Positions 158 through 48,698 of a DNA stretch of 64,000 bases are shown in pieces. Both the position numbers and the translations under genes were made by a program. Every line of letters begins with the position of its first letter. The first letter of the stretch is position 1. The stretch comes from Octopus vulgaris (Eukaryota): assembly GCA_951406725.2 (NCBI GenBank), contig OX597815.1, positions 24,552,001 to 24,616,000 on the forward strand, written 5' to 3'. The notes beneath the pieces are model-generated. The model was not told the DNA's origin, made no database searches, and was given only the letters and a program-made list of their open reading frames with translations.

Positions 158-3100
158 TAAATTAAGTTTGCAGTTTTATGTATACTGGTTTTCTCATAAA
201 CATTATAGCACTTTTCTGTATGTACATTTCATTCAAATGTCTTCTTTTCCATGCTTGCATGGGTCAGACAAAAGTATGTTTGGGCAAAGTTTTCTATGGC
301 TTGATGTCCTTCCTGTTATCAACCCCATATGTTTTCAGGTGAAGTATTAATCTCCCAGTCTATCAAACAATGAATAGCATGGATATGTATAACTGGAAAA
401 CTAGAAACAACTGACTCCAGATGGACAAGCCTTTTGTTCACAAAGATCATTCAACATGACAAGGCATGTCAAGAAACTCAGATGTGCTTTCATAGTGGAC
501 TGCAAGCAAATGACACTGCTAGCAAAGCCACTGTTTACAATGAACAAATGTGTTCAGATGAGAAAATATGAATTCATACACATACACACATAGACACTAG
601 GCTTCTTTCAGTTTCCATTTACAAAACCCACTCACAAGACTTTGGTCAGTCTGGAGCTATAGTAGAAGACACAAGCTCAAGATGCCACATTGGAAGACTG
701 AACTCAAAACCATGTAGTTAGGAAGCATTCTCTTTAACTAGACAGCCATGTACACCTATATAAATTAGAAATTTAAAGAAATATACTGTGAGCCATTTAT
801 TATGAGAGTCACAGCTCTCATGCAGCCATAGAAAAATGTTGATCCTTATCACAAATACAAATGTAAATATTAGAGCCTTCTTTACATATGACAAATCCAT
901 ACTGAAGAATACAGAAACCAATATAATTTAATAAATCAAAATAGCATTCTCCTGCACTTAAAAATTTTCCTGTACTTGAAAATATTCATCACTCCTTCAT
1001 CATCAACAAGGATGGCACCTGTGTCGGTGGCATGTGTAAAAAGATTTGAACGAGGTCGTTGCCAGTACTGCCTGTCTGGCCCCCGTGCTGGTGGCACGTA
1101 ATAGCACCCACTACACTCTCGGAGTGGTTGGCGTTAGGAAGGGCATCCAGCTGTAGAAACTCTGCCAGATCAAGACTGGAGCCTGGGGCAGCCATCTGGT
1201 TCGCCAGCCCTCAGTCAAACCGTCCAACCCATGCTAGCATGGAAAGCGGACGTTAAGCGATGATGAAGATGATGATGATGATTCTTTTCCCAATGTTAAG
1301 CAGTATGTCATCTTGTTTTCTGTCAGTCAGATACATTGTTTAGTTTAAATGGATTAAATACATTCTGAGTTATTAGTCAAATTCAGACAAGTTACAATGT
1401 TTCTGTTATTACCATGGTGATATATATGTATTATAAATATATATTCAAACATTTTTGCCATTATTTTTCTTTGGAGAGGCAGCACCTATTTGATTATGAA
1501 AATAATAAATCCAATCAAGCAGGCTATTTATTACATGAATTTCAGAGATTGGCTTCTTTGTAGTTCATGAAAATTTTGAAAGCCGAATTCTTGTTTAGTC
1601 CTATTACTCTCATGTAATCATAATAATTTGTAAAGTAGATACATAACCAAACATGAACAATAAAAGGTGACAGTAAGAATGGTATCCAGGGAAGAAGGGT
1701 CCATTGTGGTTGTCATCCCTGTGAAAGAGTTGCATCATCTTGTAATAAATAATCTAAATATTTTTATTCACTTTTAATGAAAATCATATTATTTTAAAAA
1801 TGAATTTCAAATGTAAAAGTCGTATGTTGTTTAATCAATTATTAACTAACTTAAACACATTCATTAATTTTAGTTTTTGCACATTGGTGATTATATCAAG
1901 TTGGACAATTTGCATATTTTTTGATTGAGCACTAATTGAACTAACAGCTGAGAAACAAAAGCTAATAGAATATATATTCGAAGAATATATTTGAATTCTG
2001 AATAGAGGGGTACATTTGAAATGAAAAAAAAAAACAAAAAAAAACAGACTGATGCCCCTACCCCTCTGTGTGTGCCTGTATAAAAGAAAAAACAACAACA
2101 AAAAACAATTAAAAAATTCATCCTGAGAAGATAATAAACTGCATTCTTATTACTTGGCAAGACATACAAATTAGTAACTCTACATCAATATCTTTAGCAC
2201 TTAATACAATACCCTCAGGACTGCTGTATAACTGAATATACTAATTGAAGATCATGTAAACCAACACTCATTAAACAAGGAATATAAAGCATTGTACAAA
2301 ATTTGTGAAATGAAACTATTCTAGCAGTTCTCCTTTCTAGGACTAATAAATCAAAGAAATGAGCATATGAATTAAAGACACACTCAACCATAGAATTTAA
2401 TCAAAGACTTTCTCTTCATCCTAAATTAGTCAAATATATATAAAATACATTTATCCCTTCACAAAATACCAAATGATATATTTTCAATAAATGTTCCTCT
2501 AAATAACTCTGACGAATCATACCAAGATCAGTTATGTATAGGTCACCTGACTGATCAGCAAAGATTACCTCACCAACATGCTTCAAACATTACACAGATA
2601 CACAGTTTATTCTCCCTCTCTGACCATCTTTAAATATTTTCTACTGTACACTGATGCCTAACTGAAACGTCTAATATCAGCCAGGGTCCACATGGGAACC
2701 AGTGTAAAGGCTGTACTCTCCTGAATGTTAACTACCTTTTTACCTTCAGGCTATTGTATCAACACTTATCCAATCCTAAGTCTCCGCCCTTTCAAGGTAC
2801 CATCTCTTCTGACTACCAACTACTAAAATGTTCTGTTTTAATCATACCAACTAATGATGTTCAAAGTTCTCAGCCACTTTCTCACATGACACAACATCCA
2901 GGTCTCTTAGTTTCAAGAAACTAATATAACAAAACCATTCTTTAAAGATTCTTATGTTACATTTGAATGGATCCTACACTTAAAATATTTATAATAGGGA
3001 GTAACTGTAGTCTCTTACAAGCTTTGTAACAACTGAACAGAAAAAATATATATTTTGGTAATATTTTGATTACTAAGCTGAAGACTTTCATTTGTAGTCT

Positions 3101-3383: not shown

Positions 3384-3550
3384 TACATTATGGAAGAGTC
3401 ATTTTGACCATTTAAAAACATACAAAAACTATTATTTTAAATTTCACAGTTGTTTGACGAAAATTTTGACATTTCATAAATGTAAATCAAAAGTGAATTT
3501 AACAGTTTTTGTGTGATATCAAATGGTTAAAATGACTCTTCTATGATGTA
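3384..3550. mobile_element. Small MITE-like element, ~30-bp TIRs
   Basis: tacattatggaagagtcattttgaccattt / aaatggttaaaatgactcttctatgatgta. Confidence 0.55.
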
Positions 3551-7422: not shown

Positions 7423-8429
7423 TAACTGATGACAAAGTCATAAGAACAACTGCATCTGGAGATGGGCTGATGCTAAACAACATCAAAAACCTAAACTACA
7501 GCTAAAATAGGCCAAAATACATCAGAAACATTAACTGCTTACCAGCACACATACTACAACCACTCTCCCATAAATGCACTGCTTTGGCCTTTCTTCCTCC
7601 TTTACTACAACTAGAACAGTAACAGCTGTTGCCCCACAACAGCTAGCTGCACACCACCTTCACTGACCTCATCCAATGCACCATCTGTCATTCTCTCACC
7701 ATGTGGGATTTGTTTTACCATCCAAATCCCACACTACACGCTATTTCCCAATCCTTCATCATTGAAACCACAGCAGTCTCTACTACCCACAACAACCTAT
7801 ACAAGTTCAAGCTGAACATCATCTGAATCATTCTCACCAGTCTAGGGAGACCTGTAAATATAGAAACGGTCCTTCCTTCTCTTCCTTATAGACAAAAAAA
7901 ATCAAATTGAAAATAGGAATTACACCCAGGTTTAAGATTAAGCATTTATTTAGTAATAGGAATGGCATCCAAAAGGAAATAAGTCAAAAAAGATTTGAAA
8001 CTGCTCTCTTCCTCCTCTTCTTCATCATCATTGATTTTCATTGGATGGACGCCTTTCCTGTGGTCAACTTTCACATGTTTCCAAGCAAGGTAATATTTCC
8101 TATGGCCAGACATGTTTTTGTGAGGTTTGATGGTGACAACTCACTTATAGCTATCATGTGATGTCAAGATAAAGATACACACACACAACAGGTTTCTTTC
8201 AGTGTCCATCAACCAGATCAACTTACAAAGCTTTGGTCAACCTAGGGCTATAGTGAAAGACACTTGCTCATGGAGCAATGTAGTGGGACTAAACCAAAAT
8301 CCATGTGATTAGAAAGCAAACTTTTTAAGTATACAACCAACCCTGTGCCTCTAATGATTCAAATTTGTAGAAGTATCCCACTTATGAATCTGAAGGAACT
8401 TATTTTTACAAAATTATGAAAGCTATTGG

Positions 8430-15351: not shown

Positions 15352-16852
15352 TCAGCAAAAGAAATGTCACACATATACTAAATAGAAACTGGTTTATTAA
15401 TGGACTGCCATAACATTGACTGAAGAGTGATAATTAAGAAACCATTCTTTACTGATGATAAAATGTCATTTCCTGAAACACGTTTGACATCACATAGTGT
15501 CATGTGATGACGGGGTGTCCTGGATCCAAAGAGATGAATTCAATATCTTGTGTGATCACCCTTAGCGTTGATTACTGCCAGGTATCTTATGTGCATTGAA
15601 TACACCAAACAGCTGATGAAGGCCATGGGGATAGCAGTCCACACTCTTTTAAAACTTGCAGTGAGTTGTGTCACAGTTGTCAGATACTCTATGAGGTTCA
15701 AGTCTGGACTTAGGGCAGGACATAGCAGTGTCTGGAAGTTGTGCTGGTGGAGGAAGTCTGTTTTCAACCTGGTAGTATGGACATGGGCATTGTCATGTTG
15801 AAACACGTGATTCGAATGACGGGCAAAATATTGCACAATGTGAGGTCTCAACACCTGGTTGATGTAGCAAGTAACAGTTACTCCACTGCTCCAGCTTGGC
15901 CAATGTTTTGGAAGACCACCAGTCTGAGTCTTTGGTTGAGTGCAATCTCACCCCATACCTATTTCTTTACTACCTACAAGGGGCTAAACATAGAAGGGAC
16001 AAACAAGGACAGACAAACGGATTAAGTCGATTACATCGACCCCAGTGCATAACTGGTACTTAATTTATCGACCCTGAAAGGATGAAAGGCAAAGTTGACC
16101 TCGGCGTAATTTGAACTTAGAACGTAACGGCAGATGAAATACTGCTAAGCATTTTGCCCATGATGCTCTGTCCTCCTTATGACTTTCTCTCCCCTACATA
16201 GCCATCAGCATGACATTCACCCCTTCTTCTCTGCCATCTACCACAGAAATGCAATATTGACTTTCCTCCACTGCTGATATCGCCAGTTCTGATGTTTTTG
16301 AGCCCACTGTAAATGTGCCCGTTGATGACGATCTATGAGGATATGACTTCTAGTCGAATGTTGACAAGACAGATTGAAAGATCTCAGTTGGTGGTGAACT
16401 GTCACTGCACAAATAGATCTGTGGTGACTCCCTATGGAGTTCAAGTCATTAGCAATGACCCACGGACGTTGACCACGGATGTTGACCCATGGAGACATCT
16501 GATAGCTTGCTCCCTCTGATTTCATGTCAGTCTAGGCATGCTTACTGCATTCGGGAAATGAATGACAGTATAAAATTTGGGTGCCTTTTATACTCAATGA
16601 GTCAACATTTTGACCCTGCATCATGCTTTTCATAAAGATGTATTCACGAGCATTACTATGTTCATGAAGAGTGAGTGAGTTTGAACCCTACTTGCAATCC
16701 TTGTTTTCAAAAGTGAGTGGTGTTGTGGGTCAGTGATATTTTCCTAATGTCAAACTACTCAGAAATATGATAAAATCTATATAATCTCAATATCTTGTGT
16801 GAAACAAATAATCTTTTACAGTGCAAGTTTTTTTTTTTTGTCGTTCAGTATA
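15352..16852 (-). mobile_element. Decayed Tc1-family DNA transposon, interrupted by SINE B
   Basis: VFQHDNAHVH..PALSPDLNLIE and HLQWAQKHQNW..QW motifs in broken ORFs. Confidence 0.8.
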
Positions 16853-18545: not shown

Positions 18546-18713
18546 TTGAACTTCATGGAGAGTCATTTCAGCTCGGCTGACCATTACAGAACCTGGTCCA
18601 ATAATTCCTAAGCTTTTCATCTGTGGTGAATTGGCATTAATACTCTCTCGCCTTGTTCGAAAATAATCTTTGCCATAATATTTTGTCAACAGACTCTGTC
18701 GCAGAGCCTCACC
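18546..18713 (-). CDS. ITPR: IP3 receptor exon (GEALRQSLLTKYYG...RRES...SRAEMTLHEVQ), second PKA-site motif
   Basis: 168 nt, phase 0/0, within ORF 18522..18800. Confidence 0.95.
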
Positions 18714-20099: not shown

Positions 20100-20995
20100 A
20101 AATAGGATGAGGTGGTGAAGCATGATCTTTGAATGTTGGGCCTCTTGGAGATGATGACAAATGACCGAGACCTTTGCAATCTCTGTAGAGAGAGCTTGTG
20201 GAAGAGGTAGACCCAGGAAGACATGGGACAAGGTGGTGAAGCATGATGTTTGAATGTTGGGCCTCAGACAATCGACTGAGACCTTTGCGATCTCTGTGAA
20301 GGGAGCCTGTGGAAGAAGTAGACCCAGGAAGACATGGGACAAGGTGGTGAAGCATGTTGTTTGAATGTTGGGTCTCAGACAATCGACTGAGACCTTTGTG
20401 ATTTCTAACTGTGAAAGGAGCCTGTGGAAGAGGTAGACTCAGGAAGACATGGGACAAGGTTGTAAAGTGTGATTTTCAGATGCTGGGTCTCACAGAGGTA
20501 ATGACAAGTGACTGAGACCTTTGGTGATATGCTGTGCTTGAGAAGACTCATCAAGCCAAGTGAAATCCTAGTCATGGCTGATGCTGGTATCATATAACTG
20601 GCAGCCATGCTGATGGCATGTAAAATCACCTGTGCTGATGGCATATAAAAATCACCTGTGCTGGTGGAATGTAAAATCCCCTGTGCTGGTGGTATGTAAA
20701 AAGCACCTGTGCTAGTGGAATGTAAAATCACCTGTGCTGATGGCATGTAAAAAGCACCTGTGCTGGTGGAATGTAAAATCCCCTGTGCTGGTGGCATGTA
20801 AAAAGCACCTGTGCTGATGGCATATAAAAAGTACTCATTACAATCTTGGAGTGGTTGGTGTTAAGAAGGGCATCCATCCATTGAAACCATGCCAAATCAG
20901 ACTGGAAGCTGGTGTAGCTCTCTGGCTTACTAGTTCCAGTCAAACTGTCTAACCTACGCCAGCATGGAAAGCAGTCATTAAATGATGATGATGAC
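20100..20995 (+). mobile_element. RTE-type LINE 3' end with internal tandem repeats and (GAT)n tail
   Basis: encodes RGRPRKTWDKVVKHD-like RT C-terminus ~4 times, then ~30-bp repeats; shorter 3' ends at ~1010-1282, 15213-15350(-), 18290-18510, 19320-19705, 45075-45315, 45906-46190(-); fragment 28120-28290(-). Confidence 0.75.
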
Positions 20996-28284: not shown

Positions 28285-28665
28285 CATACATATATAAATA
28301 TATTTGTATACATTTATATACATATATACATACATACCTATATATATATATATACAAGTATATATACACACACACACACACATATATATACATACATATA
28401 TATAAAAATATATATATACATATATACAAAAATATATATATACATATATACAAAAATATATACACATATATATATGTATATATATATATTTCCATATATA
28501 TGTATGTATATACATGTGTATATGTATATATGTATATGCATATATATATATAAATACATATACATACATATATATACATATGCATATACATACACACATA
28601 TATATACATATATACATATACACACACATAAATATACATATATATATATACACATACGTAGACAC

Positions 28666-28711
<46 letters not shown>
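28285..28711. repeat. Low-complexity (TA/CA)n tract
   Basis: direct reading; produces spurious Y/I-rich ORFs. Confidence 0.95.
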
Positions 28712-28714
<3 letters not shown>

Positions 28715-29177: not shown

Positions 29178-29439
29178 TTAGTAATTTATGGTAAATACAG
29201 TAAATGAATTGATTGCATCGCAATCATTAACATTTATGTATTAACTTTGTTGGGTACTTCACTAGCAGTATATTGGATATACGTTATCCCATAGAGGGTT
29301 GCATTTACAACCCCTATTTCAATTTGTATATATATATATATATTCATATACACACACATATATGCATATATATATACATATATATATATACATACATATA
29401 CATACACATACATATATTTAATTATCTAAATTATTTCAA

Positions 29440-30125
29440 AATGTTTCAGCTTCAATGCTGCAGTCATGCTGAGGCACCACCGTTGACTGAGCTACACCAC
29501 TATTTGAAACTTCCTCTGATTTGTGGCAGCTGGTCAATGAGGGAGTTTGATGCTGCTGCCCTAATCTGTGTGTCCTGCCGTGAGGTAGGCTCATCTGGAA
29601 CCCTTGACAAGAAGAGAGCCAGTTTTTTTTAAAAGACACTTACATCCACACCATGCAGGTCTCTCCAGCATTTTGGAAGGATATTAAAGAGCTGTGGGCC
29701 CTTGAAGCCCAAGGTGTTGCAATATCTGTCCTGTATTTTGATGGTGATGTTAAGATCTTTGGCACTATGCAGTGGTGCCCCGTTCTGCAGTCTGAATAAC
29801 TTTCAATGCCAAAGTTTGGTACAAGGCCTTCTAGGATTTTCCAGATGTATATCACTGTATATCTTTCCCACCTTTGTTCCAGGGAAAAGAGTTTTAATTC
29901 TCTAAGTCCTTCCCAGTGGCTGATATGTTGCATCGAGACGATTTTCTCAGAGTAGCTTTGTTGGATTGCTTTGAGTTTCACCATGGATTTTACAGTGTGT
30001 GATGACCATAGTTGGGAGCAGTAGTCCAAGCAGCTGAGAATGTATGTCCTCCAAAGGATCATCAATGTCTCCTTTTCTCTTGTTTTGAAAGTTCAGAGAA
30101 TCCATCCAGCTAGCTGTAGGCATTT
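29440..30125 (-). mobile_element. CR1/L2-group LINE 3' fragment, same family as 8430
   Basis: ORF 29640..30065 LDYCSQLWS..SLEQRWERYTVIYIWKILEGLVPN. Confidence 0.8.
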
Positions 30126-30492: not shown

Positions 30493-31138
30493 GCATCAGG
30501 GGCTCGGTGTGTGGTGGCGGCGGCGTGCTTGCGCATCATCCATTGCTGCCGCCAACCTTAGGCAAATTTCTAAGAAAATTAAAATTTATCTTATATAGTG
30601 AGGTTTTCAAACTTCTTTTTTATAAATATATATATAGCTAAGAATATAAAGTGAGAATTCACAAGACTGCAAGCTGAATAATAAACAATGCAACAGATTC
30701 ATTTTTTTGAATGAAATGGTGTTGACCATAAAAAAATGCCAAAACATAAAAGGAAAAAAAAAAATGTAAAAAAACCCCACAAACTCTTTTTCAGTAAATT
30801 TTCTGAAACAATTTGAGACTGAATGATAAAAAGTATGACTTTAGTAACAGTGATATTCTGTCTGGGAACAGGATGAGATGTAGAAATTAATCTTAAGTGA
30901 AAGTTAGCAATTTTTGTTTCTATTCAGCTAAATTATAGAACTGGCAGATGGAGTCAGGTGTGTAATTGACTATTTGATAAATAAGCATGGGATAATTAAG
31001 AAAGATGCAGCAATAGATTTACATAGAAGATTGTAAGGGGAAATGAAAAAAAAACAAAACAAACATTAACAATAAAATAATATTTGGGAGGATTATAACA
31101 TGCATCCAAAAGTAGGCTAACACACAACAATAGCTTAC

Positions 31139-31186
31139 CCGTCTGTGGTCATCAAGCTCTGTCTTATTAAGTGCCTTCAGGTCCAC
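31139..31186 (-). CDS. ITPR: Candidate cassette exon at the SII site (VDLKALNKTELDDHRR)
   Basis: 48 nt, phase 0/0, ctttcctttgctgcccatcgtaag acceptor, CGG|GTAAGC donor; resembles vertebrate SIIC (..LEDHKR). Confidence 0.75.
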
Positions 31187-32178
31187 CTTACGATGGGCAG
31201 CAAAGGAAAGGTGTATAACAGTTTATTAGTTTGAAGGATAGGATAGGTAATGACTAGGTTGGGAAGATAAGGGATAAAGGGACACTAATACAACAGTTCA
31301 ATTGAGTGTTTTTGAAATTGACAAAAAAAAAACCCTTTCTACATGCATGGCATTGGAATAATGAAACAGCTTATGAAAACAACATTTTTTACAGAAGCAG
31401 TTTAGTGGTTGCACTGGAAAAGTGACATTGATTCCTTAAATCAAGGAAACATATATTTAATGAAACAATTATATCTAATATAACCTCACATCTTACACAC
31501 TCACACACACATAAGACATTCATAAGATAAGATTTTATCAATTTACAAAAGATGATTACAGTGGTTTGTTAAGGAGTTTCAAGGATCTCCAAGCACTGCA
31601 GACCTTTTCCAGTCTCACAGGTGAATGTTTAGAGAAGTGTAGAAGTGATGTGTCATTAAATTATTGCTGAAAAACATCTATAGACATACACAAACACATA
31701 TACACATACATTAGATATATGTTCATTTTACAAAAGCAAGATAATAGCTGAAAGTTTGAGATATTGAGGAACACATTGCATAATCATAAATTTAAATCTT
31801 ACAACAATCATTATACATTTGAGTAAGGAACATAGCTTTCCTTGTTTCATTTTGCTTGACAAAAACTAAGTGCTAACCATATTTGGTTAACATTAGAGAA
31901 AACATCTAAATATACAGTCAAATGATCTGACAGCAAAAAGCTGTGTATGCATGCACACACACACACAAACATACACACACACAACAAATACACAGCATGA
32001 AAATACTCCAGGGTTCATTTCACATTAAATCTATACTTAAAACAAACAAATATATTTTGATATATAGAACATAATCATTTTCATGCTTATGTTAGTGTAT
32101 TAATAGTTTCATAATGTTTACTCAGATCAATATGCAAACCATCTCAGCTCATGAAGTAAGAAATATTCTGTATAGTTA

Positions 32179-34484: not shown

Positions 34485-34900
34485 TATTTCTTTATTGCTC
34501 ACAAGGGGCTAAACATAGAGGGAACAAACAAGGACAGACAAAGGGATTAAGCTGATTACATCGACCCCAGTGCATAACTGGCACTTAATTTATCGACTCC
34601 GAAAGGATGAAAGGCAAAGTTGACCTCAGCAGAATTTGAACTCAGAATGTAATGGCAGACGAAATACCTATTTCTTTACTACCCACAAGGGGCTAAACAC
34701 AGAGAGGACAAACAAGGACAGACAAACGGATTAAGTCGATTACATCAACCCCAGTGTGTAACTGGTACATATTTAATTGACCCCGAAATGATGAAAGGCA
34801 AAGTTGACCTTGGCAGAATTCGAACTCAGAACGTAACGGCAGATGAAATACTGCTAAGCATTTTGTCCGGTGTGCTAACTATTCTGTCAGCTCACCACCT
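34485..34900 (-). mobile_element. SINE family B, tandem dimer
   Basis: gtcgattacatcgaccccag..gaaaggatgaaaggcaaag core; other copies ~12460-12665, 15957-16160, 55770-55910, 56890-57075, 57585-57800(+). Confidence 0.8.
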
Positions 34901-39305: not shown

Positions 39306-39474
<169 letters not shown>

Positions 39475-39924
39475 GAGTTTCAAGAGAGGAGGACCACCAC
39501 TTTCAGCTGCTCAATGAAGTCACAGATCCCAAATCACCCTGACTGCCAACACACATCTGTAGGCATTCTCTTATCTACAGCTGCATGCTGTATATTCACC
39601 TGTGTTGAGTCTGATACCATCAACAACAAGCTTTTATAAAATTTACTAGAAGAGGGCTCCCCTCACCTCCCACAGTTTCTCTCTATCTTCACGTTCTTTT
39701 CCATGTAAAATCTAAAAAAAAAAAAAAAAATAAATAAATGATGGTTTGACAGAAGAAGAAAGTGTAAGTTTTCAGTCCTTTCTGTCATGTCTATTACACA
39801 ATCTCATTCCCTGTAGCCATAAGAAGGGCAACATTGTCTTTCCTCCTTGATTAAAGGAAAGTAGAGAACCAATTTTCATGATAAACTCAGTTGACAACAG
39901 GATCCTTTGTACATATAACATCAG

Positions 39925-44067: not shown

Positions 44068-44179
44068 CTTTTCCCCATAATCAATATCGACAGTCATCAT
44101 TTTTTTCAAAGTTTGAAGTACCTTGATACATAATCTTTCCTCTTTCTCCTCCAGTAAACGTTCTGTGTGCTTGATCAGT
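44068..44179 (-). CDS. ITPR: IP3 receptor exon ([37 protein letters not shown]), just before the SII site
   Basis: 112 nt, phase 2/0, AAG|GTAACA donor. Confidence 0.95.
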
Positions 44180-48519: not shown

Positions 48520-48698
48520 CTGTAAACCTTCAATGATGACTCTATAATCCCGGGACACAGTACTTGAATGAAGAGACTCTCGTTTTCTGCCAGTAGCTAT
48601 CCAATGCTTGGTGTGTTTCATGACAATCTGAGACTTCTCAAACAAATTCTTTACTTGTGTGGCTAAATCAACAGGAATTGCAATACTGCGGTTCTTTG
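48520..48698 (-). CDS. ITPR: IP3 receptor exon (AKNRSIAIPVDL...RKRES...SRDYRVIIEGLQ), first PKA-site motif
   Basis: 179 nt, phase 1/0, CAG|GTGAGT; RKRES at the position of vertebrate IP3R1 RRDS. Confidence 0.94.

Follow-up and report, generated by a model that had tools for sequence, protein, structure and literature searches.

Discussions of the SII insert usually tie it to the neuronal IP3R1 of mammals. A short exon at the same junction in an octopus IP3 receptor gene raised the questions of whether it is genuine, whether it shares ancestry with the vertebrate SIIC segment and whether it serves neurons. The window, a stretch of 64,000 nt from Octopus vulgaris contig OX597815.1, holds the middle of the gene on the minus strand, and for residues 1301 to 2096 each block of its exons agreed with P0400, a public record of this species. 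Two constitutive exons (Table 1) enclose a phase 0 intron of 25,354 nt between positions 44068 and 18713. The initial annotation had placed a 48-nt exon at the SII junction, between the two PKA sites. In the alignment, the exon lies exactly between the YGEK and GEALRQ exons, equivalent to rat 1693-1732, and it is flanked by the PKA-consensus motifs KRES and RRES, judged as motifs alone. In rat IP3R1, S2 comprises residues 1693-1732 and is removed in non-neuronal tissue (PMC5471599).

Table 1. Features of the window and of homologous loci in metagenomic DNA.
Feature	Position	Strand	Remarks
SIIC-like cassette exon	31139..31186	-	48 nt, phase 0, reads VDLKALNKTELDDHRR; sequence, junction reads, public isoforms, homologous exons
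3' splice region	31187..31253	-	AAG acceptor 31189-31187, pyrimidine tract, AG-free zone
UGC pair in 3' splice region	31202-31200 and 31199-31197	-	at -16 and -13, adjacent
CTAAT branch-like site	31229-31225	-	at -43
5' splice site GTAAGC	31133..31138	-	8 reads leave here toward the downstream exon
UGCAUG, Rbfox-type candidate motif	31099..31104	-	starts 35 nt 3' of the exon
Block without listed difference from related species	31099..31328	-	230 nt; X19 contig, 6 of its 19 substitutions without listed position
Upstream constitutive exon ending ..DYGEK	44068..44179	-	aligns with rat IP3R1 1656-1692
Downstream constitutive exon starting GEALRQ..	18546..18713	-	aligns with rat IP3R1 1733-1796
RRES, PKA-consensus motif	18642..18653	-	serine is exon residue 24, same offset as rat RRES serine
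KRES, PKA-consensus motif	48574..48585	-	where rat has RRDS (S1589 region); coordinates counted by hand
Second upstream cassette exon	39667..39711	-	45 nt, 15 aa, ILHGKEREDREKLWE; position of SIIA, not recognisably related
L003 homologous exon	2334-2381		VDVRSLTRKEYEDHKR; 48 nt, phase 0, same intron
L004 homologous exon	3503-3550		VDFKIMSKKEIDDHRR; 48 nt, phase 0, same intron
L006 homologous exon	8021-8068		VDVKSMTKKEFEDHRR; 48 nt, phase 0, same intron
Further predicted cassette	L003 3881-3949; L006 9166-9231; L007 85-144; L004 8474-8533		3' of the SIIC-like exon

A 48-nt cassette exon in the octopus gene

The phase 0 exon proposed in the initial annotation was recovered in the sequence, in frame on the minus strand, with the acceptor TAAG|GTG and the donor CGG|GTAAGC. 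The acceptor is preceded by 69 nt without another AG, and no tandem 3-nt acceptor of the SIIB type was found in the sequence. The two UGC motifs in the pyrimidine tract and the UGCAUG about 35 nt downstream were likewise present (at -16/-13 and 31104-31099). Taken alone, these motifs are little evidence: 25% of windows of 25 nt contain a UGC, and 2.4% of windows of 50 nt a UGCAUG. Open, frame-preserving AG..GTRAG candidates with a length of 9-90 nt number 41 in the intron; seven of them have a pyrimidine-rich tract, and only 31139-31186 joins such a tract with UGC and a downstream UGCAUG. A repeat or second copy of the exon was ruled out, as G000 holds a single match to this stretch.

Reads or contigs of 4 of 24 listed runs were aligned to 30790-31930 (1.1 kb around the exon). 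Run X21 is raw RNA of a related species that carries no tissue label, and about 6% of it was read. Eight of its reads exit at 31138 and continue at the start of the 18713 exon with 29 of 30 letters equal and one synonymous change, which backs the junction 31139>18713 predicted earlier, as seen in a related species. No junction into the exon from the upstream side was present among the X21 rows listed, 53 further rows being outside the listing. The X21 depth of 118 letters in the bin 31180-31218 fits four reads clipped at 31189, where AAG is common to the upstream exon and the intron, plus two more. By hand depth arithmetic, two X21 reads over 31187-31246 (minus strand) would stem from transcripts with the downstream intron removed and the upstream intron retained. 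In run X22 the exon was covered to a depth of about 3 with no junction row, and run X1 contributed an unspliced contig spanning it. The block without listed interspecies difference (Table 1) can be set against the neighbouring intron segment 31522-31927 (406 nt), which held 23 substitutions and 9 gap letters in the same species comparison.

The exon had been described as hidden, but it is already contained in public protein records of Octopus sinensis, O. vulgaris and O. bimaculoides. Among the 15 of 23 cluster members listed, it is included in 11 and skipped in 4; these records are gene models, and those of O. vulgaris may depend on those of O. sinensis. A Logan cluster about 85% identical to octopus comprised six members with the exon and four without, among the 10 of 14 that span the site. 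The octopus exon is therefore alternative, with plus and minus forms on record. The majority of listed isoforms contain it, isoform counts not being expression, and such exon-rich lists do not look like a rare neural form.

The same intron holds a second cassette, 39667-39711, which was absent from the initial annotation. It occurs in 7 of the 15 octopus records listed, and all four combinations with the SIIC-like exon are found. Clams and amphioxus have upstream cassettes of their own, so that the vertebrate SIIA+SIIC layout is echoed with different sequences. Ordinary microsatellites and tandem repeats are located at 39310-39470, 28286-28712, 20156-20829 and 34485-34851. The intronic open stretches 15543-15947 and 29439-30092 (minus strand) resemble, by eye, decayed transposase and LINE-type fragments.

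Homologous exons and probable kinship with vertebrate SIIC

A metagenome scan yielded nine loci of animal DNA, five of which span the intron. L003, L004 and L006 carry a homologous exon, each with the AAG acceptor and GG|GTAAG donor of the octopus exon. Variable columns of the homologous exons numbered 5, 7 and 12 of 16 at codon positions 1, 2 and 3. No such exon was found in L008 and L010, loci of a divergent receptor whose intron spans about 180 nt. In a poorly resolved 24-row tree, the window was placed among molluscs (88/86), and L003, L004 and L006 lay outside that group, unplaced among protostomes. L003 and L006 are called annelid-like on the basis of 84-86% identity to Owenia over 116 residues, and L004 on the basis of the cassette that it has in common with them. 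The annelid-like loci also show a further conserved predicted cassette of 20-23 aa, of the ..EERPLSFLAMCR type, 3' of the SIIC-like exon. This second cassette was not found in the window intron, where the best score was 28, without a donor.

With 41 crude candidates in the intron and few reads aligned, a chance open stretch or a cryptic exon without function was considered. It is refuted by the junction reads, the public isoforms, the conservation across phyla and the third-position-biased change, and its probability is negligible. The octopus exon is a genuine exon.

Among invertebrate isoform clusters with members listed, a matching cassette was present in 19 of 20, the exception being Littorina, and 18 of them also hold minus forms; single representatives carried it in 6 of 15 cases. 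Lophotrochozoans with a similar last cassette were chiton, abalones, pulmonates, Gigantopelta, Babylonia, mussels, scallops, clams, Lingula and two nemerteans. Elsewhere, similar last cassettes were seen in spiders (16 aa), hemichordates (17 aa), sea stars and urchins (19 aa) and amphioxus (15 aa); spiders and deuterostome invertebrates are known from proteins alone, not splice sites, and the SIIC-like cassette of each group was picked by eye. The intron often holds unrelated cassettes, as in Littorina, Aplysia, urchins, amphioxus and Anneissia, and the Aplysia record shows a different cassette. A first homologue search with the downstream exon as sole query returned six proteins, none with an insert. 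No insert was detected in the 58 parsed insect-like rows, a class that takes in anything nearest to insect references; of 120 rows in all, 25 were unparsed, and a loss of the exon in insects is only suggested by these sequences.

The 16-aa SIIC was found in P0191, P0180 and P0277, and the mole rat insert ends in ELEPSPPLRQLEDHKR, as the initial annotation had given it. Two fish records contain the 16 SIIC residues without other SII segments. Three mouse Itpr1 exons are tabulated, with sizes of 33, 36 and 48 nt and an alternative acceptor of 3 nt on the third (PMC8797185, table S2), and they are taken as SII since 33+36+3+48 gives 120 nt. The 48-nt exon, VastDB event MmuEX0024736, is the last of the three and is neural (PMC8797185, table S2); from its size, it would be SIIC.

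The likeness of the octopus exon to SIIC was assessed with a profile of 14 lophotrochozoan inserts, from which the final R was dropped because the way the inserts were chosen had fixed that residue. Among 862-2734 windows per protein, the end of vertebrate SIIC took first rank in 5 of 8 proteins and ranks 4, 5 and 15 in three fish. The spider, ambulacrarian and amphioxus inserts ranked first in 6 of 7 cases and second in one. All 15 controls, drawn from skip forms and from different cassettes at this junction, ranked at 98-2347. Only the last 6-10 residues show the likeness. Residues 1-10 scored -0.5 to -11, the N-terminal half of SIIC varies among vertebrates too, and over the full length the identity to the window exon is 2-6 of 16. 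For the C-terminal half, sequence homology to SIIC was supported.

Further points of agreement with SIIC of vertebrate ITPR1 are the junction (rat 1692/1733), the length of 48 nt, the ending [ED]-D-H-[KR]-R, the two flanking PKA-consensus sites, the ability to be skipped, the combination with upstream cassettes and the position as last cassette before the GEALRQ exon. The last of these applies to the window, while in L003, L004 and L006 a further predicted cassette comes after the exon. In contrast, the first 10 residues are proline-rich in vertebrates, unlike in octopus. The whole SII module of SIIA, SIIB and SIIC was not found in octopus, which has no 3-nt SIIB acceptor and whose upstream cassette has, by eye, no evident likeness to SIIA.

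The initial annotation had left it open whether the switch was ancestral to bilaterians or convergent in cephalopods. Its second option fails, as the cassette is common to protostomes and deuterostomes; the annelid-like DNA loci likewise exclude a convergence limited to cephalopods. Ancestry, its first option, is likely. A wider form of convergence was weighed as well, in which a permissive intron acquired exons repeatedly and these came to share a charged helical motif by convergence, so that the octopus exon would be lophotrochozoan and not SIIC by descent. The many unrelated cassettes in the intron and the unlike N-terminal halves fit this, recurrent neural exons at one position are frequent (10.64898/2026.09.05.749416), and the need to extend the GEALRQ helix, as modelled, would be a reason for convergence. 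Against it, K-[KR]-[EQ]-x-[ED]-D-x-[RK]-R is a motif that forms a graded series toward vertebrates by way of spiders, ambulacrarians and amphioxus. All but one of 30 rows have D at -4, the motif is lacking in the remaining cassettes of the junction (15/15 controls), and the length of 16 residues is common to lophotrochozoans, spiders and vertebrates. Repeated origin is considered improbable. Judged by sequence, the octopus exon and SIIC very probably have common ancestry in an exon of the bilaterian ancestor.

Within the receptor family, both PKA-like motifs were present in 28 of 33 vertebrate ITPR1 rows, compared with 1 of 69 other rows. The sequences of solved ITPR2 and ITPR3 structures align through the SII site unbroken. 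The motif pair was present in octopus and in L004 and L006, and absent from nearly all insect-like rows, which parallels the exon's own apparent absence from those rows. In some bivalves that carry the exon, the downstream RRxS is missing.

Possible regulation and predicted effect of the insert

The initial annotation had read the UGC and UGCAUG motifs as signatures of SRRM4/eMIC and Rbfox. Like the neural exons controlled by SRRM3/4, the octopus exon has UGC near the acceptor, a long AG-free zone, a CUAAY-type branch site and a weak acceptor (PMC8797185). It differs in its length of 48 nt, against a median of 31 nt for fly eMIC exons. UGC near the acceptor was present in L003 and L006 and absent from L004, and the motif is common by chance. 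The eMIC reading is further weakened by the mouse 48-nt Itpr1 exon, which is classed as 'neural-enriched, not regulated by eMIC' (PMC8797185). UGCAUG, the Rbfox signature, shows no listed change in a related species, but it has no comparable place in the three distant loci, being located at +109 in L003 and +470 in L006, with none within 600 nt in L004. Rbfox control of the octopus exon is plausible from the motif, although its position is not conserved.

By analogy with mammals, the exon would likely be enriched in neurons. Its weak, conserved AAG acceptor would rather probably lead to skipping by default, with neural factors, probably Rbfox acting via UGCAUG, raising inclusion. Neural enrichment and PKA effects of SIIC are established in mammals only. 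The exon may instead be an ancient alternative SIIC orthologue that is not neuron-specific outside vertebrates, with broad, stage-related or muscle use, the neural restriction having been gained by vertebrates. Inclusion as the majority form in most clusters and the failure of the regulatory motifs to keep their position across three distant loci point in this direction. Retention of neural specificity from one phylum to another is also rare, and 270 exon orthogroups acquired it at the vertebrate node (10.64898/2026.09.05.749416). On the other side, the 230-nt block without listed interspecies change ends at UGCAUG, and the persistence of skip forms in 18 of 20 clusters implies that some regulation is old. 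This alternative is a real possibility, though on the unlikely side.

To our knowledge, the structural role of the SII insert is unsettled. The accessible text of PMC9663519 and PMC4300941 holds nothing on SII structure. A 252-aa model, built from 82 aligned sequences for an insert-bearing close relative, reached a mean pLDDT of 79. It contains a helix at 104-125 that runs from insert residues KKELDDHRR into GEALRQ..YY with a pLDDT of about 83, and closely after it comes a low-confidence loop, 132-150, with the PKA serine. A 1198-aa model showed the same helix, but with a pLDDT of 52 it was too poor to use alone. All 30 rows have T, P, N, S or G in the column directly before the helix, and such residues are favourable for the start of a helix. 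Insert residues 8-16 are thus predicted to lengthen the GEALRQ helix by nine residues at its N-terminal end. As the modelled helix is continuous from insert to GEALRQ, inclusion of the exon is predicted to lengthen the helix leading into the PKA-site loop.

In the mammalian S2+ form, PKA effects operate via S1755 only, whereas S1589 and S1755 are both needed in the S2- form (PMC5471599). Tentatively, inclusion of the octopus exon might also change which of two PKA sites controls gating. In neurons, the exon would then alter cAMP/PKA tuning of Ca2+ release. The preferred reading is held with slightly better than even confidence; it takes the octopus exon as a likely SIIC orthologue from the bilaterian ancestor that is predicted to extend the helix, would likely be enriched in neurons and might there alter PKA tuning of Ca2+ release.

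Wider context of the SIIC-like exon

The 27-nt exon of the fly receptor gene is one that we take to be the SIII-region site. In fly Itpr it is an eMIC exon (PMC8797185), and a splice site in the SIII region is common to insects and humans (PMC8301844). This offers a precedent for a cross-phylum splice site in the receptor, although it is situated near residue 920, about 790 residues before SII. Fly Itp-r83A also has a rarely included 48-nt LowPSI exon, DmeEX0004834 (PMC8797185, table S2). It is probably not an insect SIIC if the 27-nt exon is the SIII-region site, as the two fly exons are separated by 380 codons at most, compared with about 790 residues from SIII to SII.

A 2026 survey of 20 bilaterians, octopus and amphioxus included, required an insect member and inferred no more than two neural exons as ancestral to bilaterians (10.64898/2026.09.05.749416). 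ITPR is not named in the main text of this preprint, and its supplementary datasets may list the exon. The neural microexons of APBB1/2/3 and MADD resemble the IP3R exon as deeply shared small in-frame cassettes in signalling proteins. They differ in their lengths of 6 and 9 nt and in having insect members, whereas the IP3R exon has 48 nt and none was seen in insect-like rows. The exon itself is already annotated, but no report of an invertebrate SIIC was found in a literature search that missed most classic IP3R papers.

An extended scenario, for which the chances appear even, takes the SIIC switch as a bilaterian-ancestral neural exon, the third beside APBB and MADD. Insects would have lost the exon together with the two PKA sites, so that surveys missed it; the insert would extend the helix by the PKA loop, and the exon would have been kept by ITPR1 and lost by ITPR2 and ITPR3. 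The invertebrate series marks about nine residues conserved across bilaterians and, with the model, points to a predicted lengthening of the helix next to the PKA loop. Should octopus and amphioxus both use the exon in neural tissue, it would represent an ancestral neural exon missed by the insect-member rule. If it is not neural, it would be an old alternative exon which vertebrates recruited for neurons.
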